From Pseudomonadota bacterium (lineage in GTDB: Bacteria > Pseudomonadota > Gammaproteobacteria > Burkholderiales > Burkholderiaceae_C): a DNA stretch of 44,082 bases. Under the pieces are notes generated by a model, which saw only the letters and a program-made list of their open reading frames with translations, did not search any database and was not told the origin of the DNA. The position numbers and the translations under genes are program-made. Positions 1,845 to 19,938 of this stretch are shown piece by piece; positions within the stretch are counted from its first letter, which is position 1, and each line of letters opens with the position of its first letter. The stretch spans positions 1-44,082 of the forward strand of contig JAKANU010000001.1 in assembly GCA_021812315.1 (NCBI GenBank). The letters run 5' to 3'.

Positions 1845-3086
1845 ATGAAGATTCTGCAAATCATCCCCACCCTCGACCCCAAGGCGGGCGGCCCGGTAGA
1901 AGGGCTTATCCAGCAGGGTATTGAGATGGAGCGCATGGGCCACGAGCCGCAAACGCTGTGTCTGGATGCGCCTGGTACGCCCATGGACCTGCGGCTGGCG
2001 TCGGCGGCGGTGTATCTGCTGGGGCCTGCTTACCTGAGATATGGCCTGGCGCCGCGGCTGGAGCCCTGGCTGCGCGAGCACGGGCGCAAGTTTGACGTGC
2101 TCATCATCCACGGCATGTGGGGCTACCACGGACTGTGCGCGGCCACGGTGGCGCGGCAGCTGGGCTTGCCGTATGTGATTTTTCTGCACGGCATGCTGGA
2201 CCCGTGGTTTGCCCGCCAGTACCCGCTCAAGCACCTCAAGAAGTGGTTGTATTGGCCGTGGGCAGAGTACCGCACGCTGCGCGATGCGCGGCTGGTGCTG
2301 TTTACCACGGCCGAAGAGCTGCGGCTGGCGCGGCAGTCGTTTTGGCTGTACCGCGCCCGCGAACGGCTGGTGGGCTACGGCATCCGCGAGCGCGAGCTGC
2401 CCCCCGGGCACGCGCGCGAGGCCTTTTTGCAGCGCTTTGCGCACCTGCGGCACACGCGCAACCTGTTGTACTTGTCGCGCATACACCCCAAAAAGGGGTG
2501 CGATTTGCTGATTGCGGCCTTTGCCAAGGTGGCCGCGCAAGACCCGGCGCTGCACCTGGTGCTGGCCGGCCCGGGCGATGCCGACTGGGTGGCGCGGCTG
2601 CAGGCGCAGGCGGCCCAGCTGGGGGTGCAGGCGCGCGTCACGTTTACCGGGATGGTGCAGGGCGAGGCCAAGTGGGGCGCCTACGACGCGGCCGATGCCT
2701 TTGTGCTGCCGTCGCACCAGGAGAACTTTGGTATTGTGGTGGCCGAGGCGCTGGCCTCCGGCGTGCCGGTGCTGACTACCCACCAGGTCAACATCTGGCG
2801 CGAGGTGCAGCAAGGGGGTGCGGGCATAATCCACCCCGACACGCAGGCCGGCGCGGACCAGTTGCTTACCGACTGGCTGGCGCTGGCGCCCGAGCAAAAA
2901 ACTGCCATGAGGGCGCAGGCGCAGCTGTGTTTTCAAAAGCATTTCAAGGTGCAGACGGTGACGCAACATTTGCTGGCCGCCCTGCACGACGCGGTGGCCC
3001 AGAACCCGCCACCGCGACATACGTTTGTGGGTTCGCCGTTCAAAGGGCGGCGCAGTGTAGGAGTGGTTGGTGATGACGGTGTTTAG
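1845..3086 (+). CDS. Glycosyltransferase family 4
   Basis: GGP N-terminal motif, LSRIHPKKG, and LPSHQENFGIVVAEALASGVPV (E-X7-E). The C-terminal tail overlaps the next gene. Confidence 0.92.
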   Translation: MKILQIIPTLDPKAGGPVEGLIQQGIEMERMGHEPQTLCLDAPGTPMDLRLASAAVYLLGPAYLRYGLAPRLEPWLREHGRKFDVLIIHGMWGYHGLCAATVARQLGLPYVIFLHGMLDPWFARQYPLKHLKKWLYWPWAEYRTLRDARLVLFTTAEELRLARQSFWLYRARERLVGYGIRERELPPGHAREAFLQRFAHLRHTRNLLYLSRIHPKKGCDLLIAAFAKVAAQDPALHLVLAGPGDADWVARLQAQAAQLGVQARVTFTGMVQGEAKWGAYDAADAFVLPSHQENFGIVVAEALASGVPVLTTHQVNIWREVQQGGAGIIHPDTQAGADQLLTDWLALAPEQKTAMRAQAQLCFQKHFKVQTVTQHLLAALHDAVAQNPPPRHTFVGSPFKGRRSVGVVGDDGV

Positions 3087-3429: not shown

Positions 3430-3485
3430 GCTACATATTTGCTAGCAGCCAACGCAAGCTGCACAACGGTTGGCCGATGATTTTC
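3430..3485 (+). repeat. Family A motif, intergenic copy
   Basis: GCTACATATTTGCTAGCAGCCAACGCAAGCTGCAC is colinear with the other family A copies. Confidence 0.7.
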
Positions 3486-3487
3486 TT

Positions 3488-4768
3488 ATGAAGATCCTGC
3501 TCTGCGGCATCAACTTCGCGCCGGAGCTGACCGGCATCGGCAAATACACTGGCGAGTTGGCGGCGTGGTTGGCCGCGCGGGGGCATGCGGTGCGCGTGGT
3601 CACTGCCCCGCCGTATTACCCGGCCTGGGCAGTCAGCGCTGGCTACAGCGCCAGCACGTGGCGCACCGAGCGCTGGCAGGGCGTGCAGGTGCTGCGCTGC
3701 CCGCTGTGGGTGCCGCGCCAGCCTGGTGGCATTAAGCGGCTGTTGCACCTGGCCAGCTTTGCCTTGAGCTCTTTACCGGTGCTGCTGCGTCAGGTTTTTT
3801 GGCGGCCCGATGTGGTGTGGGTGGTGGAGCCTGCGCTGTTTTGTGCGCCCACTGCGCTGGCGGTAGCGCGGCTGTGTGGCGCCAAGGCCTGGCTGCATGT
3901 ACAGGACTTTGAGGTTGATGCGGCGTTTGACTTGGGTCTGCTGCGCGGTGCTTGGCTGCGCCGCGTGGTGACGGGGGCCGAGCGCTGGCTGATGCGAGGG
4001 TTTGACGTGGTGTCAACTATTTCGCAGAGGATGCATCAGCGGCTGCTGGACAAGGGGGTGGATGCTGCAAAGGCAAGGCTCGCGGTGAACTGGGTGGACT
4101 TGGCGGCTTTCGCCGCTGGGGCACATGGATTGCCGCGCTACGCTCGCAATGACGGGTACCGGGCTGAGCTGGGCATTGCGCCTGATGCGGTGGTGGCGCT
4201 TTACAGCGGCAACATGGGTGGCAAGCAGGGCCTGGAAATTCTTGCGGAAATTGCATCAAATATGGCTGCAGCGCCCGTGCAGCAAGCGCAGGCTGCTACT
4301 GATTCCGTAGCGGTCGATTTTGTATTTTGTGGCGACGGTGTTGGACGTGCTGACTTGGTCAGGCGCTGCAAGGGCTTGCCCAATGTTCGCTTTCTGGATC
4401 TGCAACCGACCGAGCGGTTGCCAGACTTGCTGGCGATGGCCGACATCCACCTGCTACCCCAGCGCGCCGACGCGGCCGATTTGGTGATGCCCAGCAAGCT
4501 CACAGGCATGCTGGCCAGCGCTCGCCCGGTGGTGGCCACCGCCCATGAGGGCACGGAGCTGGCAACGGTGGTGCAAAACTGTGGTGTGGTGGTGCCACCC
4601 GAAGACCCCGCTGCGTTTGCCAAGGCGGTGCGCGCCCTGGCCGCAGACCCGGCGCTGCGCCAACGCCTGGGTGCCGCTGGCTACGTGTATGCCCAGACGC
4701 ACCTGGACCGGGAGGCGGTGTTGGGGCGGTTTGAGACGGATGTGCTGGGGCTGCTTGGAGGCCAATAG
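3488..4768 (+). CDS. wcaI: Colanic-acid-type glycosyltransferase WcaI (GT4)
   Basis: MKILLCGINFAPELTGIGKYTGE, APPYYPAW, RCPLWVP and AADLVMPSKLTGMLAS are WcaI signature segments. Confidence 0.9.
   Translation: MKILLCGINFAPELTGIGKYTGELAAWLAARGHAVRVVTAPPYYPAWAVSAGYSASTWRTERWQGVQVLRCPLWVPRQPGGIKRLLHLASFALSSLPVLLRQVFWRPDVVWVVEPALFCAPTALAVARLCGAKAWLHVQDFEVDAAFDLGLLRGAWLRRVVTGAERWLMRGFDVVSTISQRMHQRLLDKGVDAAKARLAVNWVDLAAFAAGAHGLPRYARNDGYRAELGIAPDAVVALYSGNMGGKQGLEILAEIASNMAAAPVQQAQAATDSVAVDFVFCGDGVGRADLVRRCKGLPNVRFLDLQPTERLPDLLAMADIHLLPQRADAADLVMPSKLTGMLASARPVVATAHEGTELATVVQNCGVVVPPEDPAAFAKAVRALAADPALRQRLGAAGYVYAQTHLDREAVLGRFETDVLGLLGGQ
4125..4154 (-). repeat. CGTC-type REP half-element (family B), in frame inside wcaI
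   Basis: ATGGATTGCCGCGCTACGCTCGCAATGACG matches 20290-20324 and translates as HGLPRYARND. Confidence 0.75.
4253..4311 (-). repeat. Family A motif, in frame inside wcaI
   Basis: GCTA-N9-TAGC at 4295-4311. Its reverse complement aligns with 1787-1843. It encodes ASNMAAAPVQQAQAATDSVA. Confidence 0.8.
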
Positions 4769-5234: not shown

Positions 5235-5255
5235 ATTAAGGGGGCGCTACCCTTT
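5235..5255 (+). repeat. Short palindromic junction site, family C
   Basis: ATTAAGGGGGCGCTACCCTTT resembles 6176-6197 and 7770-7791. Confidence 0.55.
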
Positions 5256-5295
5256 GTGGGTAAGCATGCCGGCCCTCTGCCCGCATAATGCAGGC

Positions 5296-5598
5296 ATGCG
5301 ACTAAGCACTGATCAAATCCAGGCAATACGCCATGCTGCCACGGCAGCTTTTGGTGTGGACGCTGCGGTGTGGCTATTCGGCTCGCGCGTGGACGACGGC
5401 AAAAAAGGCGGCGACATTGACCTGCTCGTGCGCCCCAGCGCCGCTGCGGCAGACCAGCCATTTGCCAAGAAAGTCAAAATGCTCAGCCTGCTGGAGCGCG
5501 AACTCGGCGAGCGCAAGATTGACCTTGTCGTTGAACAGCCCGGCGACCCCCGATCCATTGTGATGGTGGCTCATGCCACCGGCATCCAAATCCAATGA
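5296..5598 (+). CDS. Minimal nucleotidyltransferase (MNT) antitoxin
   Basis: MRLSTDQ start, VWLFGSRVDDGKKGGDIDLLV (GS..DxD) and KIDLVV. About 100 aa. Confidence 0.88.
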   Translation: MRLSTDQIQAIRHAATAAFGVDAAVWLFGSRVDDGKKGGDIDLLVRPSAAAADQPFAKKVKMLSLLERELGERKIDLVVEQPGDPRSIVMVAHATGIQIQ

Positions 5599-6068
5599 AG
5601 CCCACGCCAGACCAACTGGCACTGCAGCAAATCGACGCCGTGTGCCAAACCCACGCTGAGACGCTTGACGAAGTCCTGCAGGATATGCATAGGCGTGCGC
5701 TCACGCTTGCCGACTACAGCCATCTGTCCAAAGAAGACCGCCGTTTGCTCGACCAGTTTGCCTACCGCTACACCCGGCTACAAGACGACATCGGTGCCCG
5801 GCTGATGCCCGCGGTGCTCAAAGCCCTGGGCGAAGACGTTGGCCCCATGTCTGCCATCGACCGCTTTACCCGCCTTGAACAACTCGGCTGGCTGAGCAGC
5901 GCAGACGAATGGCTTGCCACGCGGCAAGTGGGCAACCAGTTTGCCCACGACTACCCCGACAGCGCCGCAGAACGGTTTGATCGCCTGCAAGCCGCCACCC
6001 AGGCTGCGCGCCAATTGCTGACCACGATGCACCAATTCAGAAGCAAACTGGCGTCAGACTTCAACTAA
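5595..6068 (+). CDS. HEPN-domain toxin partner of the MNT (catalytic R replaced by G)
   Basis: ATGA overlap with the MNT gene. DQFAYRYTRLQD segment. GNQFAHDY sits where RX4HXY is expected. Confidence 0.8.
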   Translation: MKPTPDQLALQQIDAVCQTHAETLDEVLQDMHRRALTLADYSHLSKEDRRLLDQFAYRYTRLQDDIGARLMPAVLKALGEDVGPMSAIDRFTRLEQLGWLSSADEWLATRQVGNQFAHDYPDSAAERFDRLQAATQAARQLLTTMHQFRSKLASDFN

Positions 6069-6127
6069 CCGAAGAGGCGCGAAAAAAGCAGCCACTCTTG
6101 TCTGTCCCCCTTCCTTGCGGGGACCAC

Positions 6128-6176
6128 GATGCTATTGAATAGATAGCTGCCCACGAAGGCTGCATGGGCACTAAAC
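6128..6176 (+). repeat. Family A motif, intergenic copy truncated at a family C site
   Basis: GATGCTATTGAATAGATAGC is 18/20 identical to the reverse complement of 38158-38177. It continues GGCTGCATGGGCACT like the 1787 copy. Confidence 0.75.
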
Positions 6177-6197
6177 ATTAAAGGGGACGTTACCCAT
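6176..6197 (+). repeat. Family C site, left of the Fic gene
   Basis: CATTAAAGGGGACGTTACCC is 18/20 identical to 7770-7789 in direct orientation. Confidence 0.7.
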
Positions 6198-6285
6198 TTA
6201 TTGAGGCGCACGTTTTTGACCTGATCGAGCCGAATATCAATTTACGCGACAATACGAAGCCGTTAACACCAGTAAAAACGACAAA

Positions 6286-7836
6286 ATGGCCATGGTCAAA
6301 AAATTAGAAGCCAAAAACACGACAAGACGGGACAACTCCCTCTTGCTTTACGCGGAGATGGACAGCGCCCAGGTGCGCGCCGTTCAGCGCAGGCTTCAAT
6401 TGGGCGAGCTTGCGCTTATTGCCAAAGGTATCGCGTCCGACCGCCCACCTGAAGAATGGCCCGCCCTGATTGCCCGCGAGCGTATTCGCGTGCTGGCAGC
6501 TTTGTTTGCAGGTGCCGTCTATGGCTACCGAAGCGCCTTTTCTGGGGGCTTGCCCCAGGACGGCTTGCTGTACCTGAGCTACACCTATAGCCGCACCGTG
6601 GCGCTGCCGGGCTTGACGGTGAGCGTTCTCAAGGGTGCGCCCAGGCAAGTGGGCGATATGCCCATGCAGGGCAAAGATCTGTATTTCCCATCGGAGCCCC
6701 GGCTTTTACTGGAAAACCTGACCCAGAGCCGTGGACCGGTAAAGAAGTCTGCAGGCCGCCAGGCTGTGGAAGCACGCTTGCTCAGCATTTGCGACTCGCG
6801 TGGAGAGGAGTCCTTGTCACGTTTGCGGGAGACTGCCCGAGCCTTGGCTCCTGCTTTGGGTTTTAACAAGGAATTCAACCTGCTTGATGCCATGGTGGGA
6901 AGCATCATCGGATCACGCGTATCGCAGCTCAGCACCCAGTTTGGCAAAGCGCGCACCGCCCAGATACCCTATGACCCAGATCGGCTTGCTTTGTTTGAAA
7001 AGCTGGCTGCCGAGTTACGCGCATGGCCACTGCGTCAACCAGCCAACGTCACTGCCACCAGTCAGGCGCGCGCGCACTTCGCATTTTTGGAATCCTATTT
7101 TTCCAACTTCATCGAAGGAACCGAGTTTGATATTCAGGACGCACGGGGTTTTGTGCTGGACGGCAAGCCCATTGAGGTGCGCCCTAAAGATTCGCATGAC
7201 ATCATCGGCGTCTACAGGCAGGCCCTCAACCCTGGCTGGGCCAACCAGGTGCTCGCTTCTGGTGAGCCGGTTGAGGTTCAATTGCGATCACGCCATGCAG
7301 ACCAGATGGCTGAGCGCCCCGAAACAGCCCCTGGTGAATTCAAGGTTAAAGCCAATCGCGCAGGCAATACCGAGTTTGTCCTGCCAAAGCTGGTTCGGGG
7401 CACGCTCATCGAGGGCTCCAAGCTGTTGCCATCGGTTCCCGCTGGAACAGGGCGTGCCTTGCTGGCCATGTTTTTGGTGTCCGAGGTTCACCCGTTCAAT
7501 GATGGCAATGGTAGGCTGGCCCGATTGGTGATGAACGCCGAGCTTTCCGTGGTTGGTGCGTGTCGCATCATTATTCCAACCCTGTTTCGCGAGGAATACC
7601 TGGACAGTCTGAGAGCGCTCACGCGGGACGCAAACCCCACCCCTTTTGTCGCCGCCATGCAGAAAATCCAAGGCTGGACAGCGGGGTTCAACTACTCCGA
7701 CCTGGATGCGGTCATTGCCCACATGAAAGCCTGCAACGCATTTGAGCGTTCGCGGGTGCAATTTGAGCTCATTAATGGGGACGCTACCCTTCTTCTTGGA
7801 AACATGGGTAGTAAGCAGGGTCTTGATACCATGTAA
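6286..7836 (+). CDS. Fic-domain protein with large N-terminal extension
   Basis: Canonical HPFNDGNGRLAR motif, and the inhibitory (S/T)xxxE(G/N) motif SNFIEG upstream of it. Confidence 0.9.
   Translation: MAMVKKLEAKNTTRRDNSLLLYAEMDSAQVRAVQRRLQLGELALIAKGIASDRPPEEWPALIARERIRVLAALFAGAVYGYRSAFSGGLPQDGLLYLSYTYSRTVALPGLTVSVLKGAPRQVGDMPMQGKDLYFPSEPRLLLENLTQSRGPVKKSAGRQAVEARLLSICDSRGEESLSRLRETARALAPALGFNKEFNLLDAMVGSIIGSRVSQLSTQFGKARTAQIPYDPDRLALFEKLAAELRAWPLRQPANVTATSQARAHFAFLESYFSNFIEGTEFDIQDARGFVLDGKPIEVRPKDSHDIIGVYRQALNPGWANQVLASGEPVEVQLRSRHADQMAERPETAPGEFKVKANRAGNTEFVLPKLVRGTLIEGSKLLPSVPAGTGRALLAMFLVSEVHPFNDGNGRLARLVMNAELSVVGACRIIIPTLFREEYLDSLRALTRDANPTPFVAAMQKIQGWTAGFNYSDLDAVIAHMKACNAFERSRVQFELINGDATLLLGNMGSKQGLDTM
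7770..7791 (+). repeat. Family C site, inside the 3' end of the Fic ORF
   Basis: CATTAATGGGGACGCTACCCTT is a direct repeat of 6176-6197. Confidence 0.7.
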
Positions 7837-7838
7837 CC

Positions 7839-8252
7839 ATGACTGATCGACTGGCCAAAAACTTGTTGCTGTTGCAACTGTTGGCGTTGTTGGCAGGCAC
7901 GCAGATGCCGGGGGCTTGGCGTGCCGCAGCATTGACAGAGCTGGGCCTGGGCGGTGGCATATCGTCGTGGGCGCATTTTGTCTTGTTTGGCGGTATGGCC
8001 GCCTTGGCCTACGCCCGGCCGCTGGCCTGGCCGCTGGTGCGGGTGGTATTGGTGGCGTTGGGGCTGGCTTTGCTGACCGAGGGGCTACAGTTTTTTGCAC
8101 AAGACCGGCACCCGCGTTGGCTGGATGTTGATATCGACATGGCCGGCGCTGCGGCCGGGTTGCTGGTGGTGACCCTCGCCCGCATGGCCCGGGCTCTGCG
8201 CGCGCGCCTGAAGTTTGTACTGAAATCTGCCCCCTATGACGCAAGCGACTGA
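7839..8252 (+). CDS. VanZ family membrane protein
   Basis: AHFVLFGGMA and TEGLQFFAQDRHPRWLDV follow the VanZ pattern H..E..Q..R..D. Hydrophobic helices. Confidence 0.8.
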   Translation: MTDRLAKNLLLLQLLALLAGTQMPGAWRAAALTELGLGGGISSWAHFVLFGGMAALAYARPLAWPLVRVVLVALGLALLTEGLQFFAQDRHPRWLDVDIDMAGAAAGLLVVTLARMARALRARLKFVLKSAPYDASD

Positions 8253-8958
8253 ACCCAAACAAGCCTTCCCTTACAAACCCCCCACCGCCGAGATCAGGGC
8301 CCGCTACGCGCATATTTTTGACCTGACCGAGCCGCTGGCGCCCCGGTTTTTCAAGTCTGCGTTTGACAAGCTGTTGGCGGCAGTCGTGTTGCTGGCGGCG
8401 GTGCCGGTTTTTGTGTTGCTCAAGCTGGCGTACTTGGTGGAGGGCTGGTTGCTGCCCGACAACGCCGGGCCGATGTTTTTTTATTACAACGCGGTCAGCG
8501 CCGGGCGCGTCTTCCCCAAATACAAGATGCGCCTGATCAAGATGAAATACATCGAGCCCGAGGGCGCCAGGCGGCACGACTGGATTGCCTTTTCAGCCGA
8601 GTGGACGCCCGAGAGCCGCACCCATGTGGGCGAGTTTGTGAAAAAGTTTTACCTCGACGAATTGCCCCAGTTTTTCAGCGTGCTAAAGGGCGACATGAGC
8701 GTGGTTGGCCCGCGCCCTTTGGCCATATTGCATTACGAGCGCGATAAGGCGCAGGGCAACGTGACCCGGTTTTTGTTGCGCGGCGGCTTGCTCGGGCTGG
8801 GGCACATCAACAAAGGCACGTCAGAGATGGGCAACCCCATTTATGAGTACGAGTACGTTGACCAGTACATCAAACGCACATCCTTCGGGCTGCTGCTGCT
8901 CGATTTGCGGATCATCTGGCGCGGCTTCTTGGTCATCATCAAGGGCGGCGGGCATTGA
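8236..8958 (+). CDS. Monotopic phosphoglycosyl transferase (priming sugar transferase, Bac_transf family)
   Basis: KSAFD followed by a re-entrant helix, and LDELPQFFSVLKGDMSVVGPRP. Other motifs are divergent. Confidence 0.85.
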   Translation: MTQATEPKQAFPYKPPTAEIRARYAHIFDLTEPLAPRFFKSAFDKLLAAVVLLAAVPVFVLLKLAYLVEGWLLPDNAGPMFFYYNAVSAGRVFPKYKMRLIKMKYIEPEGARRHDWIAFSAEWTPESRTHVGEFVKKFYLDELPQFFSVLKGDMSVVGPRPLAILHYERDKAQGNVTRFLLRGGLLGLGHINKGTSEMGNPIYEYEYVDQYIKRTSFGLLLLDLRIIWRGFLVIIKGGGH

Positions 8959-9107: not shown

Positions 9108-9164
9108 GTTTTCGTGCTGCTGGGTGAACGAGCCCGGAAGGCGGCTTTTGGAGGGAATACAGAT

Positions 9165-9614
9165 ATGAAAAAACTTACATTTGCGCTTTTATTGGCTGCG
9201 CTTGGCAGTGGTGGCGCTTTGGCGGCAGACCCGGTCGGTGTCGCCCAGACCGTGCAGGGCATCGTCACGGTAAGCCAGGGCAACACCATGGGCAACCTGG
9301 TCAAAGACCTGAAGATTTTCGACGGCATGCGCTTGGCGGCGGCGTCCACCGGCAGTGCGCTGATCAAGTTGAACAATGGCTGCGAAATCTCGCTAGCTGC
9401 CAACGAGTCCATCCTCATAGACGCCGCGCTTGACTGCAAGGCGCTGGTGGCCAGCATCACAAAGCCGCCGGCTGGCGGCGGACTTGCTGGTGGTGGTGGT
9501 GGCGGCGCCTTTGCCGGTGGCGGCTTTGGCGGCGGTTTGCCCATCGCGCTGGGTGTGGGTTACGGCGCCAGCGTCAGACACTGGACTAAGCGGCCAAACT
9601 CCAGCGGTAGTTGA
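9165..9614 (+). CDS. Small secreted protein: signal peptide, beta-rich (FecR N-terminal-like) domain, Gly-rich linker, hydrophobic stretch, C-terminal Ser
   Basis: GAGGGA RBS. MKKLTFALLLAALGSGGALA|A is a Sec signal. Two Cys. The tail is GGLPIALGVGYGASVRHWTKRPNSSGS*. Confidence 0.8.
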   Translation: MKKLTFALLLAALGSGGALAADPVGVAQTVQGIVTVSQGNTMGNLVKDLKIFDGMRLAAASTGSALIKLNNGCEISLAANESILIDAALDCKALVASITKPPAGGGLAGGGGGGAFAGGGFGGGLPIALGVGYGASVRHWTKRPNSSGS

Positions 9615-10984
9615 CCTTGCAGCGGCTACAGGCAAAGCAGACGGGGCTCTTGGGCCCCGTTTCTTTTGGTGCCGGAGTGCTGCTGCTGGTTCTTGTTCCG
9701 ATCTTTCGTGCGGGTAATCGATATGTGCCGCTGATCGGGCTTGAGTGGCTGGCGCTGTTGGTGCTTTGGCTGCTTGCAATGCGATCTTTGGCTGGCTCGC
9801 CAACGCTGGCCAATCGCCGCGACGTGGCGCCGTTGGGCATCGGCGAATGGCTGCTGGTCTTGTCGCCGCTTTGGGCTGCGCTGCTCTTTCTCACGCCCTT
9901 GCCCATGGCGTTCTGGGCCGGGTTGCCCGGGCACGCCGCATATCCGAGTGCGCCGGGTGTTGGCTGGCGCTCTCTCTCGCTCACACCCGATGCCACTGTT
10001 GCATCTTTGCTGGCGGGCATCTTACCGGTCACTGGGTTCATGCTTGCGCGTACGGCTACTTCAGCACAGTTGCGCACACTCGCCACTGTCTGGGTGCTGC
10101 TGGCTTTGTTGCAGTCCGTTTGGGGATTGCTGCAGGCGGGGCCATTCAAGGAGCTTGGCTTCGGTGTTAGTGTTGATGCCGCTGGCGGGGTGATTGGCAG
10201 CTTTGGTGGTCGCAACAATTTTGCGAACTTCATTGCCATGGCCTTGCCGCTGGCAATATTGATGCTCTGGCGGTCCTTGCCTGGGGTGGGCAGGGCGCAG
10301 TCACGGCGTTCGATGTGGGTTACAGCGCTTTGGTCGCTGGCGCTATTGGTGTTGGCCGCGGCGGTGCTGGCATCGCTTTCGCGAGCTGGCACTGTCGCCG
10401 CGATAGTCGTGTCGTTGCTTACGGTGCTGCTGCTTCTGAACACGGTTGCCAAACCGCACCGCCGTTGGTACGCACTTGGCGCCGCGGTTCTTGTGGTTCT
10501 GGCAGTATTGATAAGCGCCGGGGTGATGACCCTTATTGCGCGCTTTGAGGACGATGCTTTGACGCAGGGAGTGGCGGGCCGTTGGCAACTGACCGAGAGT
10601 AGTTGGCAAGCGGCGCAGGCGTTTTGGCCCACAGGCAGCGGCCCCGGCAGTTTTGCCAACGTTTACCCGCAATTCCAGCCCCCGGGAATGCTGGCTTCGA
10701 TTGAGCATGCGCACAATGACTATGTTGAACTGCTGATGGAGTTTGGTGCCCTGTTTGTTGTGGTTGCGGCGTTGGCCGCCGGCTTGATTGCGCGCCAGGC
10801 TATTTGGTTGTGGCATCAGGCGAGCCGCGTGAGCCGTATGCCGGGTTCGCTGCAGTTGCAATTGTGCTGTGCACTGGGTTTGCTGGCAGTGCTTTTGCAC
10901 AGTTGGGTGGACTACAATTTTCGCATTCCCGCCAACGCCACGCTTGCGGCCTGCCTGCTCGGTGCTTTTTTGCGCCGCAAATGA
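9611..10984 (+). CDS. O-antigen ligase / O-oligosaccharyltransferase family membrane protein (Wzy_C)
   Basis: About 11-12 TM segments, GSFGGRNNFA, SLSRAG, GSGPGSF, HAHNDYVELLMEFG and HSWVDYNFRIPAN. TTGA overlap with the upstream gene. Confidence 0.88.
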   Translation: MTLQRLQAKQTGLLGPVSFGAGVLLLVLVPIFRAGNRYVPLIGLEWLALLVLWLLAMRSLAGSPTLANRRDVAPLGIGEWLLVLSPLWAALLFLTPLPMAFWAGLPGHAAYPSAPGVGWRSLSLTPDATVASLLAGILPVTGFMLARTATSAQLRTLATVWVLLALLQSVWGLLQAGPFKELGFGVSVDAAGGVIGSFGGRNNFANFIAMALPLAILMLWRSLPGVGRAQSRRSMWVTALWSLALLVLAAAVLASLSRAGTVAAIVVSLLTVLLLLNTVAKPHRRWYALGAAVLVVLAVLISAGVMTLIARFEDDALTQGVAGRWQLTESSWQAAQAFWPTGSGPGSFANVYPQFQPPGMLASIEHAHNDYVELLMEFGALFVVVAALAAGLIARQAIWLWHQASRVSRMPGSLQLQLCCALGLLAVLLHSWVDYNFRIPANATLAACLLGAFLRRK

Positions 10985-11028: not shown

Positions 11029-11829
11029 ATGATCAGATTTTTGCTCGGTGCGCTGGCTCTGTGGCTGGCCCTGTCGCAGCCGATGTTGGTCTTCGCGCAA
11101 GGCTCCGGCTCTGCCAAGACGCCCGGGATGACATTCACGCAATCACTTGCCCCCGTGAGCGCACCGGCAGCTGAATCAGTGCCCGGGGTGCCGATGACGG
11201 CGGCATCTTCACCAACGGCGGGCCGTGCAGTCCCGCTGGGTACGTTGGCCAGTTTGGGTGCCGACTATCGCATCGGCCCCAATGATTTGCTCGACGTTGA
11301 AGTGTTCGGCGTGCCAGACCTGAAGCGCTCGGTGCGTGTCAATTCGTCGGGCCAGATCTCGCTGGCGCTGGTGGGCAATGTGGTGGTGGCGGGGCTGTCG
11401 GCACAGCAGGCCGAGGAACTGGTTGCCGAAAAATACTCAAAGAACTATTTGCAAGACCCGCAGGTGTCAGTGTTCATTCGCGAGTTCACCACGCAGCGCA
11501 TTACTGTCGAAGGTGCAGTAGCGCGGCCCGGGATTTACCCGGTCACGGGGCAGGTGACGCTGTTGCGTGCCCTGGCGCTGGCTGGCGGCGGCGCGCCGAT
11601 GGCCAACTTGAGCGAGATCATGGTGTTTCGTGACGCACCTGGCGCAGCCCGGGTAACTCAGATCTACGACCTGGAGAAAATTCGTGCTGGGGAACTGCCG
11701 GACCCGCTGGTGCTGGCCGACGATGTGATTGTGGTCAAGCGCGATTCGGCACGTGCCGCGTTGCGCGACTCCTTGTTCCGCGATGTGATTGATTCGATCA
11801 ATCCGTTTTCAGTGCTTGTGCCCCGCTAG
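11029..11829 (+). CDS. wza: Polysaccharide export protein (Wza/OPX family, Poly_export + SLBB)
   Basis: DYRIGPNDLLDVEVF..RVNSSGQISLALVG..YLQDPQVSV..VEGAVARPGIYP. Signal peptide without a lipobox Cys. Start chosen from the RBS; 10981 is possible. Confidence 0.88.
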   Translation: MIRFLLGALALWLALSQPMLVFAQGSGSAKTPGMTFTQSLAPVSAPAAESVPGVPMTAASSPTAGRAVPLGTLASLGADYRIGPNDLLDVEVFGVPDLKRSVRVNSSGQISLALVGNVVVAGLSAQQAEELVAEKYSKNYLQDPQVSVFIREFTTQRITVEGAVARPGIYPVTGQVTLLRALALAGGGAPMANLSEIMVFRDAPGAARVTQIYDLEKIRAGELPDPLVLADDVIVVKRDSARAALRDSLFRDVIDSINPFSVLVPR

Positions 11830-11864: not shown

Positions 11865-14279
11865 ATGACTACCTCTGACAATTCTGTTGCCGGACCTGGC
11901 GGGCCGACGGTCCCGGACCAGGGCCCGGTGACTATACCGGCCAACGGTCGCGCTACCGCAGTGCAATTGCGGCAGCAGTCGTTTGCTTTGCAAGCCAACC
12001 TGGCGCGAGCTGAGGCGACGCAGGAATTTGATGATTCTGTCTCCATCCGGGAGCTGTTTCATATCCTCACCCGTTACAAATGGGTGCTGCTGGCCATGGC
12101 TGTTCTTGGCGTCGCGGCGGCTCTGGTGTTTGGCCTGACCAGCACGCCGGTGTATCAGGCCACTGCGGTGCTGCAAATTGACCGTGCTACGCAGCGCGTT
12201 GTCCAGTTTGCCAAGGACATTGACCCGTTTCAGGAAAGCGACACGCTGATTCTGCAGACGCAATACGAGTTGTTGCGCAGCCGTTCGCTGGCCGAGCGCG
12301 TGATTGACGACTTGCGTCTTGATGCGCCAAACGGTGGGGGCGTGGGCGTGGAACCAGGAGCACCTGTCGCGGTAGCGGCGCAAGCCAGTGCCAGCGCTGC
12401 TTCGGCAAGCAAGGTCGGCTGGTGGGACGAACTGGTTGCCGGGTACGACCGGTTGGGCAAGCCATCGGTAAATGATCGTACCGTCTTGGGCCACGAAGAA
12501 GTGCTGCGCCGTTTTATGAAAGCGTTGACGGTCGAACCTGTGCGCAATTCGCGCCTGGTCAAGGTCAAGTTCAAGGACGCAAGCGCTGCGCATGCCGCCC
12601 GTGTCACGAATGCCATTGCCCAAACATTTATTACCCTTGGAATGGAGCGACGTACCCAGTCGTCGGATTACGCCAAGTCGTTCTTGGAAGATCAGATCAA
12701 GGCCACCAAGGCCAAGCTTGAGGCGTCGGAGCGCGCGCTCAACACCTATGCCCGGGAAAATTCGCTGTTGACGCTGGATGAGAAGACCAATGTCATCAAT
12801 CAGACTTACACGGATTATTCGTCGGCAATCGCGGCAGCGGAGCAGGAGCGGGTAAAGGCAGAGTCGATCTATATCGGCGTGGCGGCGAATCCGGCGGGTG
12901 CGACGCAGGTTCTTGAAAACAGGACGGTGCAGGCGTATAAGGAGCAGAGGGCGAAGATCGAGGCCGAATACCTTGCCAACCTTGCCACCTACAAGCCCGA
13001 ATTTCCGAAGATGCAGCAGTTGAGAGCGCAGATCAAGGAAATCGATCAGCTCATCAAGGCGGAGACCGCTTCCGTAGTGGCGTCCATCAAGGGCCACTTT
13101 GACGCGGCAAAGAAGCAGGAAGACCAGTTGCGCGCGCGCCTGCAGGCTACGCGCAAGGAAGTGCTGATCGCGCAGGACAAGAACGTGAACATGAACCTGC
13201 TCAAGCGCGAGGTTGACACGAACCGCCAGTTGTACGACGGGCTGTTGCAACGCATCAAGGAAGTGGGCGTGACCAGTGGCGTCACGTCGAACAACATCTC
13301 GGTGGTGGACAGCGCGACGACGCCCTTGTTCCCGGTTTCGCCCAATTTCTTGCTCAATGCCGGTATTGGTCTGCTGGCGGGTTTGCTGCTTGGCATGGGC
13401 TTTATCGTGCTGCGCGAGCAACTCGACGATTCGGTGCACGACGCCGTCACCATCGAGACCAAGCTTGGGCTGGCGCTGCTGGGGATCATTCCCCTGGTGA
13501 AGAAGAAGGGGCAGCAAACCTTCTTGGCGCTGCTGGCGGTGGAAGACCCGCGCAGCATGTTCTCGGAGGCGTATCGGTCGATGCGCACGGCTTTGCAGTT
13601 CTCGACCGCTGAGGGTGCGCCACGGCGGCTGATGGTGACGAGCAGCGTCAAGGGCGAGGGCAAATCGACCACGGCGCTGGCGCTGTCGATCAATTTTGCG
13701 CAGTTGGGCGAGCGCGTGCTGCTGATTGACGCGGATCTGCGCAATCCATCGCTGCACCGGGCAGTGGCGCGCTCCAACGAGGCCGGCTTGTCGACTTATT
13801 TGTCGGGCGATACGCGGATGGTGGAATTGATCCAGACCGTGGACATCCCGAACCTGGCGGTGATGACGGCTGGCAGGCATCCACCTAACCCGGTGGACCT
13901 GCTGATGGGACCGCGTCTGATGGAACTGTTTGAACGCGCCGAAGCACTGGGCTTTGAACGCATCGTGATCGACGCGCCGCCGATTCTGGGGATTGCGGAC
14001 TCGATCGTGCTGGGCAATCAGGTGCAGAACATTCTGTTTGTGGTGAAGTCGGGCGAAACGCGGCTATCGAGCATCCGCGACGCGCTGCGGCGCTTGCGCC
14101 TGAGTGGCCTCGTGCCCTTGGGTGTGGCGCTGACCCGGGTGGGGAGCACCAGCAGCTACGGCTACTACTACAACTACTACGGCGGATCTTACGGCGATTC
14201 GAAAGCAGCGCCCAAGGCAGATCGCCAACTGACCGGTAGCCCGTCGCGGCGCAAGGAGCCTGCTGGCCAAGCGGCTTGA
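11865..14279 (+). CDS. wzc: Polysaccharide co-polymerase / BY tyrosine kinase Wzc
   Basis: Two TM segments flanking a coiled coil, Walker A GEGKST, LIDADLRNP, VIDAPP, and the C-terminal Tyr cluster SSYGYYYNYYGGSYG. Confidence 0.95.
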   Translation: MTTSDNSVAGPGGPTVPDQGPVTIPANGRATAVQLRQQSFALQANLARAEATQEFDDSVSIRELFHILTRYKWVLLAMAVLGVAAALVFGLTSTPVYQATAVLQIDRATQRVVQFAKDIDPFQESDTLILQTQYELLRSRSLAERVIDDLRLDAPNGGGVGVEPGAPVAVAAQASASAASASKVGWWDELVAGYDRLGKPSVNDRTVLGHEEVLRRFMKALTVEPVRNSRLVKVKFKDASAAHAARVTNAIAQTFITLGMERRTQSSDYAKSFLEDQIKATKAKLEASERALNTYARENSLLTLDEKTNVINQTYTDYSSAIAAAEQERVKAESIYIGVAANPAGATQVLENRTVQAYKEQRAKIEAEYLANLATYKPEFPKMQQLRAQIKEIDQLIKAETASVVASIKGHFDAAKKQEDQLRARLQATRKEVLIAQDKNVNMNLLKREVDTNRQLYDGLLQRIKEVGVTSGVTSNNISVVDSATTPLFPVSPNFLLNAGIGLLAGLLLGMGFIVLREQLDDSVHDAVTIETKLGLALLGIIPLVKKKGQQTFLALLAVEDPRSMFSEAYRSMRTALQFSTAEGAPRRLMVTSSVKGEGKSTTALALSINFAQLGERVLLIDADLRNPSLHRAVARSNEAGLSTYLSGDTRMVELIQTVDIPNLAVMTAGRHPPNPVDLLMGPRLMELFERAEALGFERIVIDAPPILGIADSIVLGNQVQNILFVVKSGETRLSSIRDALRRLRLSGLVPLGVALTRVGSTSSYGYYYNYYGGSYGDSKAAPKADRQLTGSPSRRKEPAGQAA

Positions 14280-15691
14280 GTGCAGGCGCTGATGCCATGG
14301 CTGCGCTCGCTAGCAACAGCTCAGGCAATGCCGGGCAGCATCGTCTGCTGGAGGCACTGTTTGACTTTGAAGCCTTGCCTGGGCGCTACCCGCTGACCTT
14401 GCGCGAGCCGCGCGCGCTGTTTGACCACAGCCACCAGGTGCTCATGCTGGCGGCGGGCCGCCCGGTGAAGGAACTGGAACTGGCTGCGGAGGACGCGGCA
14501 CGGGCGCAGCGCGCTGCCTGCTTCTTTGTGCGCATGGCCATGCTCCGATCCGGCGCCGACCATTACACCTTGCTTGGGCTGCCGCGGGACTTTCAGGCCG
14601 ATACCCTGCGTGATCATTACCGGCTTCTGATGCGGCTGACGCATCCGGACTTTGCTGGCGACGCAAGCCAGTGGCCACGCGATGCTGCGACGCGCATCAA
14701 TCAGGCCAATGATGTGTTAAGTTCGCGCGCACAGCGCGGCGAGTACGACCGGCAACTGGCAAGCGTGGCACCGCGGCCGATGCCAGTCAACAGCCTGGCC
14801 GCCGTGTTGCCCACGCCGCGCAAGCCTCGACCGGTGAAAGTGAAATGGGTTTGGGTAATGGGCACCGGGGCGGCCGGTGCGGTGCTGCTGGGGCTGAGCT
14901 TCATGCTGACCGGGAGCCCGGACGTTGCCGAGACCAGTGAGTTGGCCAGCACGGCGCAAGGCGTGGCGGTACGTGCTGACGAGCCGGTGCCGGCTTCCGT
15001 GCCGGCACAAGCCTCGACCCATGCCCTGCTGCCAACGCTGCGGATAGATCATGATTTGGTAGTCTCTGCGCCGGTGGCCCCGGCAATTCGCCCGGCCAGG
15101 GTGGCGCGGGTCAGGACCGAAGACCCGGCACCGGCGAGCCCGGTTGAACAGGCGCTGGCACCGCGCCGTGTCGAGCCTGCCGCCCCGGACCCTGTGCGGG
15201 CCGAACCAGCGCCAGTGTTGGCGCCTGTGGCCGAGCCGTTGATGGTGGTCGCGCCTGCGGTGGTGGCCCCGACTGTGTCTGTGACACCGGTTGCGACTGC
15301 GGCCGTGCCCGCCAGCAAGCCGGCGCGCCGTCTTAGTCTGGCCGATGCGCAGTCGGCGATGGGTGAGCTGATGCAGGCCATGCAGGCGGGCCGTGGTGAG
15401 GATCTGCTCGCGGCGATGGATCGGGCGCTGCGGCGCAGTGAGGGTGCCATCAATCTGGTCAATGCGTACAACCTGCTGGTGGGCGATTCGCGCGCCGTGC
15501 GCCTGGGGCCGGTGCGGCTGCGTGGCTATCCGGATGCGGACCGTCTGGTGGTTGATGGCACGGTGCAATTGGTGTTGTACGACCAGGGTCAGCCCGCGCC
15601 GGTGCGCGAGTTGCGCTTGCGTGCGCTGTTTGCCCAGCGTGGCGGACAGGTGGTGATGACGGATATTTCTGCCGGAGGGGCGCGGCCATGA
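14276..15691 (+). CDS. Membrane-anchored J-domain (DnaJ-like) protein with Pro/Ala-rich linker and C-terminal domain
   Basis: DHYTLLGL..LRDHYRLLMRLTHPDF..RINQANDVLS..RGEYD is a J domain with intact HPD. TM segment WVWVMGTGAAGAVLLGLSFML. Start codon uncertain. Confidence 0.8.
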   Translation: MSAGADAMAALASNSSGNAGQHRLLEALFDFEALPGRYPLTLREPRALFDHSHQVLMLAAGRPVKELELAAEDAARAQRAACFFVRMAMLRSGADHYTLLGLPRDFQADTLRDHYRLLMRLTHPDFAGDASQWPRDAATRINQANDVLSSRAQRGEYDRQLASVAPRPMPVNSLAAVLPTPRKPRPVKVKWVWVMGTGAAGAVLLGLSFMLTGSPDVAETSELASTAQGVAVRADEPVPASVPAQASTHALLPTLRIDHDLVVSAPVAPAIRPARVARVRTEDPAPASPVEQALAPRRVEPAAPDPVRAEPAPVLAPVAEPLMVVAPAVVAPTVSVTPVATAAVPASKPARRLSLADAQSAMGELMQAMQAGRGEDLLAAMDRALRRSEGAINLVNAYNLLVGDSRAVRLGPVRLRGYPDADRLVVDGTVQLVLYDQGQPAPVRELRLRALFAQRGGQVVMTDISAGGARP

Positions 15692-15695
15692 GCCT

Positions 15696-16847
15696 ATGGG
15701 TTCAGTGAGCATCCGTGTTGCGCTGGGCATCGCGGCCACGGCATTGGCGCTGGCTTTGGGCTGGCTGGCGTGGGGCTACAACCTGGAGCGCGCCTGCACG
15801 CTGGGTCAGTGGCCCGAGTTGCCTTCTTGCGCCAGCCCGACCAACGATGTGCAGGCACAGGCGAGTGCGCTGCGCAAACGCATTGCGCGCAACCCCGGGG
15901 ACTCCGAGGCGTGGATCAATCTGGCGATGCTGGAGCAGGGCGCGGCGCTGGAGATGGCAACGAAGCTGGCCGGGCAGGATTATCGTGTCCAGCGCTTGCA
16001 GGCGGGCCGTGCCATTGAGCGGCAGCAGTGGCCACAGGCCGTCGGTTGGTTGGTGCGGCTGGTGCAGGACAACCGCGACGCCCCGGCCGCGTTGGCGTTG
16101 GCGAAGATGGTGCTCGAGCCCAGCGCGTTGGCGGCGATGATTGCGCAACTTGAAAATGACTCGCGCTGGCTGGAGCCGGTCATCAACTCGATGCCGCAGG
16201 CCCGCGTACCGGTGATCAAGGCGATGCCGCTGGTGGTGCGTGCGCTGGCGCTGAAAGCGGTTCCGCCCGCCCTGTTGCAGCGCCTGTTGACGGGGTTGAA
16301 AGCCGAGGGCCAATGGATGGAGGCGCACGCTTTGTGGCTGGCCTCGCTGGGGCATTCGGTGCCGCTGATATTCAACGGCGATTTTGAGCAGGGCTTCATG
16401 CCTGGCGGCTTTGATTGGGAAGTGCTGCCGGTGCTGCCATCGAGGGCCGGGGCGCTGGTGCATCAGGCCACCGCCAGCGGGCGTGGCGGCGTGCTCGAGG
16501 TTGACTTCACCGGCCGCGCGGTGACCTTGCCGATCGTGCGCCAGTATGTGATGTTGATGGGCAACCGCTATACGCTGAGCGGAGAATTCATGACGATGCG
16601 CTTGCGTACCGAGCAGGGCCTGACCTGGGCGCTGCGCTGCGTGGTGGGTGGCCGCGAAGTGGCGCATACGCCACCGTTGAAGGACACCTCCGGCCAGTGG
16701 CAGCCGATGGAACTTGCGTTTGATGTGCCGGCGGGTTGTGGGCCGGCGCTGGTTCTGCAATTGCAAACGGTGTTGCCCGAGGAGGCGCTTGGCGGCCTGC
16801 GCGGGGAGGTTCGTTTTGACAATCTGCAATTGCAGGTGCGACCATGA
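15696..16847 (+). CDS. Membrane-anchored periplasmic protein, TPR-like helices plus C-terminal CBM_4_9-like beta domain
   Basis: N-terminal TM segment, RNPGDSEAWINLA (TPR-like), and LIFNGDFE...EVRFDNLQL (CBM-like ends). Confidence 0.65.
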   Translation: MGSVSIRVALGIAATALALALGWLAWGYNLERACTLGQWPELPSCASPTNDVQAQASALRKRIARNPGDSEAWINLAMLEQGAALEMATKLAGQDYRVQRLQAGRAIERQQWPQAVGWLVRLVQDNRDAPAALALAKMVLEPSALAAMIAQLENDSRWLEPVINSMPQARVPVIKAMPLVVRALALKAVPPALLQRLLTGLKAEGQWMEAHALWLASLGHSVPLIFNGDFEQGFMPGGFDWEVLPVLPSRAGALVHQATASGRGGVLEVDFTGRAVTLPIVRQYVMLMGNRYTLSGEFMTMRLRTEQGLTWALRCVVGGREVAHTPPLKDTSGQWQPMELAFDVPAGCGPALVLQLQTVLPEEALGGLRGEVRFDNLQLQVRP

Positions 16848-17638
16848 TCGACCTGCATAGTCACATTTTGCCCGGCATCGATGACGGCGCGCCGACGCTG
16901 GAGGTGGCGCTGGAGATGGCACGGCTGGCGGTTGGCGATGGTATTCGGACCATGGCCTGCACGCCGCATATTTATCCCGGGCTGTACATGAACGACGCGC
17001 CGGGCATTGCGACTGCACGTGTGGCGTTGCAACGCGAACTCGACGCACGCGGCATCGGCTTGCAACTGGTCAGCGGTGCCGATGTGCATCTGGTGCCGGG
17101 TTTGCTTGAGGGCCTGCGCGGCGGAACCATACCGACGCTGCATGGCTCGCGCTACCTGTTGCTGGAGCCACCGCACCATGTGGCCCCGCCGCGGTTTGCC
17201 GAATCGGTACGGCAACTGATGATGGCGGACTATGTGCCGGTGATCACGCATCCGGAGCGGCTGAGCTGGATCGAAACGCATTACAAGGTTTTTGTCGAAC
17301 TCGTCGGCCAGGGTGCCTGGATGCAGGTGACAGCCGGTGCCGTGGCAGGGCATTTTGGGCAACGCCCGCGGTATTGGGGCGAGAAGTTTCTGGGCGAGGG
17401 CCACACGCATATTCTCGCCACCGACGCGCACGCGAGTTCCGGGCGAATTCCCTGCTTGTCGCAAGGGCGCGTGGTGGCCGAGCGGCTGCTCGGTGCCGAC
17501 GAGGCGCGCCGGCTGGTGCAGGAACGTCCGCAGGCGATTGTGGACAATCTTGCCCCCAACGCCTGCCCCCTACCGCCCCGAAGTGAAGCACCGCGCAGTT
17601 GGTGGCAAAGGCTGTGGCCAGGCCGGGGCGAGGCGTGA
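16844..17638 (+). CDS. PHP-family protein tyrosine phosphatase (CpsB/CapC/YwqE type)
   Basis: MIDLHSHILPGIDDGA, CTPH, ITHPER and ATDAH metal-binding motifs. Confidence 0.93.
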   Translation: MIDLHSHILPGIDDGAPTLEVALEMARLAVGDGIRTMACTPHIYPGLYMNDAPGIATARVALQRELDARGIGLQLVSGADVHLVPGLLEGLRGGTIPTLHGSRYLLLEPPHHVAPPRFAESVRQLMMADYVPVITHPERLSWIETHYKVFVELVGQGAWMQVTAGAVAGHFGQRPRYWGEKFLGEGHTHILATDAHASSGRIPCLSQGRVVAERLLGADEARRLVQERPQAIVDNLAPNACPLPPRSEAPRSWWQRLWPGRGEA

Positions 17639-19638: not shown

Positions 19639-19938
19639 ATGATTGACCTGAGCAAGCTGACCGGGTTCAACTGGGATGATGGCAATACCCGAAAGAACGA
19701 AAAGCACGGCGTCTCGATGGCCGAGGCCGAACAAGTATTCTTCAACGCTCCCTTGCTGATATTGGAGGATGGAGCCCACAGTCAAGAAGTACCGCGGCTT
19801 CACGCTTTGGGTCAGACGGACGACGGGCGAAGGCTGCACATCAGCTTCACCCTGCGCCAGTCCCAAAGTTTGATTCGTATCATCTCGGCCCGGGACATGC
19901 ATCGAAAGGAGCGCGTCAGTTATGAACAAGCCGACTAA
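19639..19938 (+). CDS. brnT: BrnT family ribonuclease toxin
   Basis: GFNWDDGN..NEKHGVS..EAEQVF..RIISAR..KER motifs. Confidence 0.9.
   Translation: MIDLSKLTGFNWDDGNTRKNEKHGVSMAEAEQVFFNAPLLILEDGAHSQEVPRLHALGQTDDGRRLHISFTLRQSQSLIRIISARDMHRKERVSYEQAD

Follow-up and report, generated by a model that had tools for sequence, protein, structure and literature searches.

The enzymes closest to the ones considered here are TfpO/PilO and TfpM, which have 420–470 aa and a Wzy_C domain without PglL_A or Wzy_C_2; their genes immediately follow that of a dedicated substrate, which bears the acceptor region at its C-terminus (PMC9829042, PMC12645811). TfpO glycosylates the terminal Ser of its substrate, and extra residues after this Ser block the glycosylation (PMC9829042). 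Dedicated O-oligosaccharyltransferases (O-OTases) are typically encoded beside their substrates, according to PMC12645811. A comparable pair of genes was found in a stretch of 44,082 nt, hereafter called the window, which represents one whole contig (JAKANU010000001.1 of assembly GCA_021812315.1) of a Pseudomonadota genome of 3.07 Mb, 96.7% complete and split into 428 contigs. The first gene codes for a small secreted protein of 149 aa and the second one for a Wzy_C protein of the O-antigen ligase family, referred to below as the ligase for brevity. Unlike the TfpO/TfpM substrates, the small protein is not a pilin (no Pilin or N_methyl match and a different fold), its conserved Ser occupies position -3 or -2 instead of the last one, and the pair lies within a Wza/Wzc export cluster. 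The small gene and the Wzy_C gene apparently form a real and widespread enzyme–acceptor module that has so far escaped description; no description of such a pair was found in a full-text literature search that included few subscription papers and no supplements.

In the 301 genomes of the window's family, a full-length small gene was present in 11 and a ligase orthologue (E ≤ 1.2e-85) in 12, namely in the same 11 genomes and in G023, which is 63% complete. Both genes were adjacent in 10 of the 11 genomes and lay approximately 59 kb apart in the remaining one (G081). The scan that started from the ligase, in which close relatives labeled Polaromonas, Rhodoferax, and Burkholderiaceae were found, gave 14 close loci overlapping the genomes of the family test. 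The small gene was located directly upstream of the ligase in 11 of them and approximately 6.5 kb downstream in two, and was not found in one locus placed on a short contig. Further members were detected in two other groups: the family to which G520 belongs, distinct from that of the window but within its class, and the order that includes G473, a genome with close relatives among named Rhizobiales. The tails of these members read, for example, PVSR, PISP, and PASP. The named carriers are Agrilutibacter, Mesorhizobium sp. 113-3-3, and Agrobacterium leguminum. The linkage of the pair is conserved over Beta-, Gamma-, and Alphaproteobacteria, which agrees with an earlier note on this DNA, where the small protein had been regarded as a dedicated non-pilin partner of the Wzy_C protein. 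A profile search for the small protein among 1.84 billion representatives returned 1066 clusters (50% identity) at E ≤ 1e-10, some of which may be FecR-type proteins. The search of plasmids with the window ligase gave one partial match.

The 149-aa open reading frame begins with a Sec-like leader, followed by a folded part that contains two Cys residues, a Gly-rich linker, a weakly hydrophobic 13-mer, and the sequence RHWTKRPNSSGS. Its C-terminal part contains the stretch LPIALGVGYGASV, the basic RHWTKR, and the end PNSSGS*, so the architecture given in the earlier note is indeed present. The leader was called by eye and with a crude hydropathy rule (no SignalP), and the whole protein had no Pfam or NCBIfam match above the cut-off. 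In the alignment of 36 homologues, four columns are invariant: G32, C73, C91, and S147. This alignment (A2) omits P0005, P0027, and L006, which carry apparent frameshifts, and five close relatives of the included rows; the other frame of L006 reads PVSAQ. The terminal residue was Ser in 23 of the 36 homologues. Ser stood at position -3 in 123 of the best 150 representatives and at one of the positions -2 and -3 in 131; it was the last residue in 31, each of which also had Ser at -2 or -3. The last residue varied (Q 51, S 31, N 23, R 20) and was Thr in none of the 150, while the background of Ser in the last four residues amounted to 6–8% per position in 2933 called proteins. The motif [ILVAPST]-S-[GPSANR]-[QSNR]0-1 closed the C-terminus of 103 of the 150 representatives, and with the end shifted by 3–8 residues only 0–7 matches were left.

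These counts changed the view of the tail. The earlier note had followed a TfpO-like logic based on the terminal Ser and had named a lack of conservation of this Ser in homologues as a ground for refutation, which is what the counts show; the pair is not of the strict TfpO type, because TfpO needs a terminal Ser, whereas the conserved Ser here is subterminal. The terminal Ser was rejected as the signal, and Ser147 was taken as the proposed glycosylation site. The basic residues before the end did not prove to be conserved either: of 130 family members, 58 have a tail with a positive net charge, 38 a neutral one, and 34 a negative one. The supposition that the C-terminal signal is distinct from PEP-CTERM held, given the lack of a PEP motif, of a conserved charge, and of any NCBIfam match. 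An anchor of the PEP-CTERM kind, built of a hydrophobic stretch and a basic cluster, was rejected since this combination is not conserved. Other proteins with the same tail, as proposed in the note, were searched for in the genome of the window with no other convincing case; a loose filter let through 9 of 162 candidates, of which the window protein alone appeared genuine, hence a sorting signal shared by many substrates was discarded.

The tail was also encountered beyond the window-type family. The broad ligase profile had matches in 98 of 401 Pseudomonadota genomes. It returned 29 loci besides the window, and in 15 of them inspection by eye showed that the gene upstream codes for a small protein with Ser at -2 or -3 (one of the 15 loci is a seed and another is truncated at a contig end). 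The N-termini bearing the tail are unrelated: some have a domain of the window type, others are helical, the 75-aa proteins have no domain, and Ala-rich sequences occur in L074 and L177. In 80 further loci (8 kb each side), the motif was present in 22 of 218 small secreted candidates spread over 21 loci, and the controls gave 2–6 with shifted ends and 7 of 220 in the genome of the window. Proteins of the helical type often have no hydrophobic stretch, and therefore their tail should be periplasmic. A [TP]AAG sequence precedes the Gly/Pro linker in five of six helical proteins of one set and in one of three of another, and fits the LapG motif given in bioRxiv 10.1101/198937. A LapD-family gene is adjacent in G287, G121, G319, G534, and G673, and 9 kb off in G575. 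The LapG site is absent from the window protein, and it was rejected as a feature of the window-type family ([TP]AAG in 6 and the loose motif in 40 of 150). LapG- and LapD-family genes of the window's genome lie on another contig.

On the predicted model, the N-terminal domain of the small protein has the fold of the RTX-adhesin retention module. The confidence (pLDDT) exceeds 90 over residues ~21–100 and drops below 50 over 109–142. The single clear structural match was PDB 5IX9, titled 'cell surface anchoring domain', which we take to be the MpIBP retention module (E 2.6e-3 and target TM-score 0.80 in Foldseek; Z 11.0 and rmsd 2.2 Å over 72 residues in VIA-align, the next match having Z 4.0). 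A profile comparison gave E 6.3e-6 for this match. The LapA retention-module model NF033682 weakly matched 16 of 28 members (best E 2e-5), and the window protein reached 11.5 bits against a cut-off of 50. Besides the fold, the Gly-rich linker that follows the domain is shared with LapA/MpIBP, and other members of the tail system have the [T/A/P]AA[G/V] LapG motif before the linker and a LapD-family neighbor. The differences are the Sec-type signal, the length of 149 aa, the lack of RTX repeats and of the LapG motif in the window protein, the score below the NF033682 cut-off, the added Cys pair, and the absence of recognizable type I secretion genes from the module. In LapA, the retention module and a subsequent poly-Gly linker keep the adhesin in the outer-membrane pore (bioRxiv 10.1101/198937). 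We tentatively suggest, with less than even confidence, that the small protein might likewise be held in the periplasm as a plug; the fold alone gives no proof of such a role, because many FecR-type proteins start with the same fold. Five family members (P0040, P0043, P0069, P0107, and P0168) contain 3–5 tandem domains resembling the retention module, and four of them retain Ser at -2 or -3.

The Wzy_C protein matched only PF04932, with no PglL_A or Wzy_C_2 detected at E ≤ 0.05; one homologue showed a sub-threshold PglL_A match. The conserved residues include R324, H368 (within HAHNDY), and H430. No NCBIfam model names the protein, and the PDB sequence search gave no match. TIGR03097 did not recognize it either, and one homologue scored 23.5 bits against the cut-off of 188. 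The protein is probably a ligase/O-OTase, as judged from its neighborhoods, because some clusters already hold an EpsG-family polymerase or an ABC exporter: an EpsG-family gene (PF14897) directly follows the ligase in L063 and L068, two Polaromonas loci, and Wzm/Wzt genes (an ABC-2/ATPase pair) occur in the G225 cluster. The description of the ligase as the only Wzy-like gene of a Wzx-dependent cluster fails in these three cases, and the window cluster ends with the contig. The Mesorhizobium cluster holds a second ligase-family gene, and in G252 the module is present with no glycosyltransferase seen in its flanks. The genome of the window has six Wzy_C matches, some of them candidates for the lipopolysaccharide (LPS) and pilin roles. 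Its Wzm/Wzt-like pairs lie on other, unlinked contigs; no match to the Wzx or EpsG seeds tried and no EpsG-family gene were found in this incomplete assembly. Altogether, the cluster and genome context would favor a transferase over a polymerase or WaaL.

We consider it reasonably probable that the small protein acts as the dedicated acceptor of the polysaccharide exported by Wza/Wzc and becomes O-glycosylated at a subterminal position. The small protein would be exported via Sec, its tail would reach the periplasmic active site of the Wzy_C protein, and the latter, as a dedicated O-OTase, would move the lipid-linked glycan of the cluster onto Ser147. More speculatively, the glycan and the disordered tail might thread the OPX pore, with the disulfide-stapled N-domain staying in the periplasm as a stopper and tethering the polymer as a capsule. 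In one branch, the LapD/LapG switch responding to c-di-GMP might sever the tether at [TP]AAG, and the polysaccharide would be shed. By analogy with the adhesins, a complete capsule-anchoring system of this kind, with a glycan on the subterminal Ser, an N-domain stopper, and the LapD/LapG release in one branch, is conceivable, though we would sooner doubt it than rely on it.

Several observations weigh against the acceptor role. The most serious one concerns topology. The hydrophobic stretch is weak in the window protein (best 19-residue Kyte–Doolittle mean of 1.16), and the median of 1.68 across 130 family members also lies below the 2.0–2.5 of the two Wzc helices; the value is at least 1.6 in 83 of the members. 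A stretch spanning the inner membrane would leave the tail in the cytoplasm, beyond the reach of the enzyme, and for many members a cytoplasmic tail has to be reckoned with, which constitutes the main weakness of the proposal. The selection of the 150 representatives was not blind to the tail, as the profile that picked them included it. Of the seven ligase seeds, six stem from loci that had been located via the small gene, which leaves only five genomes of the family test outside the seeds; moreover, the genomes are related and several loci recur between the scans. No tail protein was found within 8 kb in 59 of the 80 more distant ligase loci, and a looser tail rule rose barely above its control (97 vs. 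69 of 500). The FastTree tree of 58 rows gave no firm deep branching: the tail-associated ligases did not come out as one clade, and long-branch outgroups fell among them. The Wzy_C domain itself cannot tell a ligase, an OTase, and a polymerase apart, as stated in PMC12645811. Finally, the contig ends within the window cluster, and the flippase and polymerase of the cluster are therefore out of view.

The explanation that survives best besides the acceptor role, an unlikely one, is that the tail serves unglycosylated as a recognition or processing signal, be it a docking motif for the ligase-like protein or the export complex or a site for a protease or transpeptidase, with the small protein belonging to the OPX/Wzc machine as a structural accessory. 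Docking and sorting signals typically keep a fixed distance to the free C-terminus, as this motif does. The hydrophobic stretch could act as a stop-transfer in the 83 members with high hydropathy, and in several Rhizobiales loci the small gene lies beside cpsB/OPX, not beside the ligase. Nevertheless, the only residue with high conservation carries a hydroxyl group, the tail stays with the ligase in the LapD-paired loci, where no OPX gene was recognized in the flanks examined, and no dedicated protease recurred in the gene lists inspected by eye.

It is also improbable that the Wzy_C protein serves the cluster as its Wzy polymerase, with the small protein as an unmodified partner. A Wzy would be expected in a cluster with OPX, Wzc, and phosphatase genes, and the failure to find EpsG in the window's genome speaks for this role, as do the weak matches of two distant homologues to polymerase models (TIGR04370, E 4e-7; enterobacterial common antigen polymerase, E 0.007) and the lack of any Pfam match for the genes considered as second polymerases in L076, L078, and L098. 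It is opposed by the EpsG genes in the two Polaromonas loci, the Wzm/Wzt genes in G225, and the Wzm/Wzt-like pairs in the window's genome together with the lack of Wzx and EpsG matches there. In addition, the ligase recurs alongside differing sets of glycosyltransferases. Polymerases are usually much less conserved than the 43–50% noted among the ligase seeds.

Glycosylation of the terminal Ser149 by a TfpO-type enzyme appears very improbable: the close relatives mostly end in SGS, 23 of the 36 aligned homologues end in Ser, and the ligase resembles TfpO in its size and in the lack of PglL_A and Wzy_C_2, but the minority of representatives with a terminal Ser all have the subterminal one as well. 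That the protein is a lipid A–core ligase (WaaL) capping LPS with the glycan of the cluster is scarcely credible, since beyond the common Wzy_C domain the WaaL of Escherichia coli scored 5.5 bits on the broad ligase profile, another Wzy_C gene of the window's genome adjoins an MsbA-like ABC gene (by eye), the context is an export cluster, and the tail would be left unexplained.

Among more remote systems, GfcA and YjbE of the E. coli group 4 capsule and exopolysaccharide (EPS) operons are small first-gene products with a signal peptide and a low-complexity region (PMC8592465). They share with the small protein a Gly/Ala-rich hydrophobic stretch and a Ser/Thr tail, with Ser at -3 in YjbE. They differ in having no folded N-domain, no Wzy_C gene in their operons, and the GfcBCD barrel system instead. 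PF11106 did not match any of the 16 scanned tail-family proteins of the retention-module or Ala-rich type, and the likeness is taken here as an analogy. GfcA has been speculated to carry the O-antigen in the group 4 capsule (PMC8592465), and PMC13712831 deals with a Gfc-type capsule, not with the window module. The PEP-CTERM/exosortase system with the TIGR03097 ligase also combines a C-terminal signal tied to EPS clusters with a ligase-like gene, whereas the small protein has neither a PEP motif nor a conserved basic cluster and no exosortase is present in the module. PglL and PglS modify internal Ser residues in disordered Ala/Pro-rich regions (PMC12645811), unlike the window ligase in having PglL_A and Wzy_C_2; the separate PglL-type gene of the window's genome adjoins a pilin. 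This gene lies in L084 (G000:C137, 847–3072), where a type IV pilin ending in Thr precedes a 560-aa PglL_A/Wzy_C/Wzy_C_2 protein, probably the pilin glycosylation locus of this genome. The exosortase of the same genome is encoded on another short contig (L087, 984–1886, G000:C397) and reached 309.9 bits with XrtV, the cut-off being 313.

How polysaccharides exported by Wza/Wzc are retained on the cell is an open question for many systems, and by pointing to one enzyme, one substrate, and one residue, the present work makes the question directly testable in tractable non-pathogens. The ligase profile is widespread in Pseudomonadota, as given above, and the acceptor was found for part of the genomes. 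If the proposal is true, a sugar chain on a small protein would represent an undescribed way of tethering a capsule to the cell, and an O-OTase for long polymers acting on a four-residue C-terminal tag would open up a new type of application in bioconjugation. If the LapG-type branch is confirmed, release under the control of c-di-GMP would apply to polysaccharides as well as to protein adhesins.

The features of the window are collected in Table 1.

Table 1. Features of the pair and of the surrounding export cluster in the window.
Feature	Position	Strand	Remarks
Small secreted protein, 149 aa, proposed glycan acceptor/anchor	9165..9614	+	GGAGG at 9150-9154
Predicted Sec signal peptide, ~residues 1-21	9165..9227	+	By eye; architecture kept in alignments
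Beta-rich domain, ~residues 21-100, invariant Cys73/Cys91	9225..9464	+	RTX-adhesin retention-module fold (predicted)
Gly-rich linker and weakly hydrophobic stretch, ~residues 103-137	9471..9575	+	pLDDT <50 for 109-142; 19-residue hydropathy 1.16
Ser147 (-3), conserved tail residue, proposed glycosylation site	9603..9605	+	36/36; -3 in 123/150
Wzy_C (O-antigen ligase family) polytopic membrane protein, 457 aa, proposed O-OTase	9611..10984	+	Pfam Wzy_C E 3e-18
Terminator-like hairpin and T-rich run within the ligase gene 5' end	9639..9670	+	12/12 aligned loci
OPX (Wza-like) export protein, Poly_export + SLBB	11029..11829	+	Amphipathic C-terminal segment, no lipobox
Wzc-like polysaccharide co-polymerase/tyrosine kinase	11865..14279	+	Family search
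J-domain protein	14276..15691	+	Recurs with module in many loci
Membrane-anchored protein, weak TPR signal, no family	15696..16847	+	Recurs in module
CpsB/CapC tyrosine phosphatase	16844..17638	+	Family search
Priming phosphoglycosyl transferase (Bac_transf)	8236..8958	+	Family search
Further glycosyltransferases	97-921, 1845-3086, 3470-4768		Family search

At the junction of the pair, the stop codon TGA of the small gene (9612–9614) overlaps TTG 9611. Most close homologues have TGATG there; the window junction reads TGACC instead, so the ligase starts at either TTG 9611 or TTG 9617. The stop/start overlap described in the earlier note exists with the former codon, where it measures 4 nt, and is replaced by a 2-nt gap with the latter. 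Translational coupling of both genes may be presumed from this arrangement. The hairpin at the ligase 5' end (z -2.2) is conserved at third codon positions in all the aligned loci; 98% of cells are paired and a single pair is changed on both sides. The covariation support was weak, with 40 of 500 shuffles scoring as high, and the hairpin sequence also codes for a conserved peptide. The terminator scan on its own was not significant (6 found vs. 4.8 expected). As a leaky terminator, the hairpin might cause the acceptor to be made in excess over the enzyme.

Upstream of the pair, the cluster codes for the priming transferase, a VanZ protein, and glycosyltransferases, and a DUF218 protein is encoded downstream. 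The amphipathic C-terminal segment of the OPX protein has a moment of 0.64 vs. 0.56 in GfcE. This end and the lack of a BBP2_2 barrel would fit a pore of the Wza_C-like kind, in the sense of PMC9603273. No BBP2_2 partner was found in searches of the genome of the window (G000), G225, or G252; matches were obtained in G473, on another contig, and in G520, a weak one. The PDB sequence search with the TPR-like membrane protein gave no match; this protein and the J-domain protein (14276–16847) recur with the module in many loci. The sugar cluster is broken up at 982–1793, 5254–7836, and 19639–19938 by accessory genes. These comprise a small pair of two genes without a Pfam match, a nucleotidyltransferase gene accompanied by a partner, and the genes of a Fic protein and of a BrnT toxin.

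Some further loci deserve mention. Helical Ser-tail proteins are encoded directly upstream of related ligases in L172, L174, L175, L189, L201, L206, L207, L211, L261, and L266; most of these ten have [TP]AAG, often beside a LapD-family gene, and they are possible non-adhesin LapG substrates. The domain-less members of 75 aa lie directly upstream of the ligase in L194, L196, L202, L209, and L215 (~1170–1436, ligase strand), and this minimal form consists of a signal, a short linker, a hydrophobic stretch, an acidic run, and an SP/SN/SD end. Ala-rich secreted proteins of 194–236 aa ending in SPS are encoded 2–5.5 kb from related ligases in L241, L246, L250, L264, and L277. In G252 (L093–L096, G252:C1 5540000–5616800), a module with two tandem small genes occurs twice, inverted, near the contig end; the second copy is frameshifted and is possibly an assembly artefact. 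Genes that look by eye like those of the lasso-peptide type (PqqD-like and asparagine synthetase-like) are situated just upstream of the module in L062, L070, and L073.

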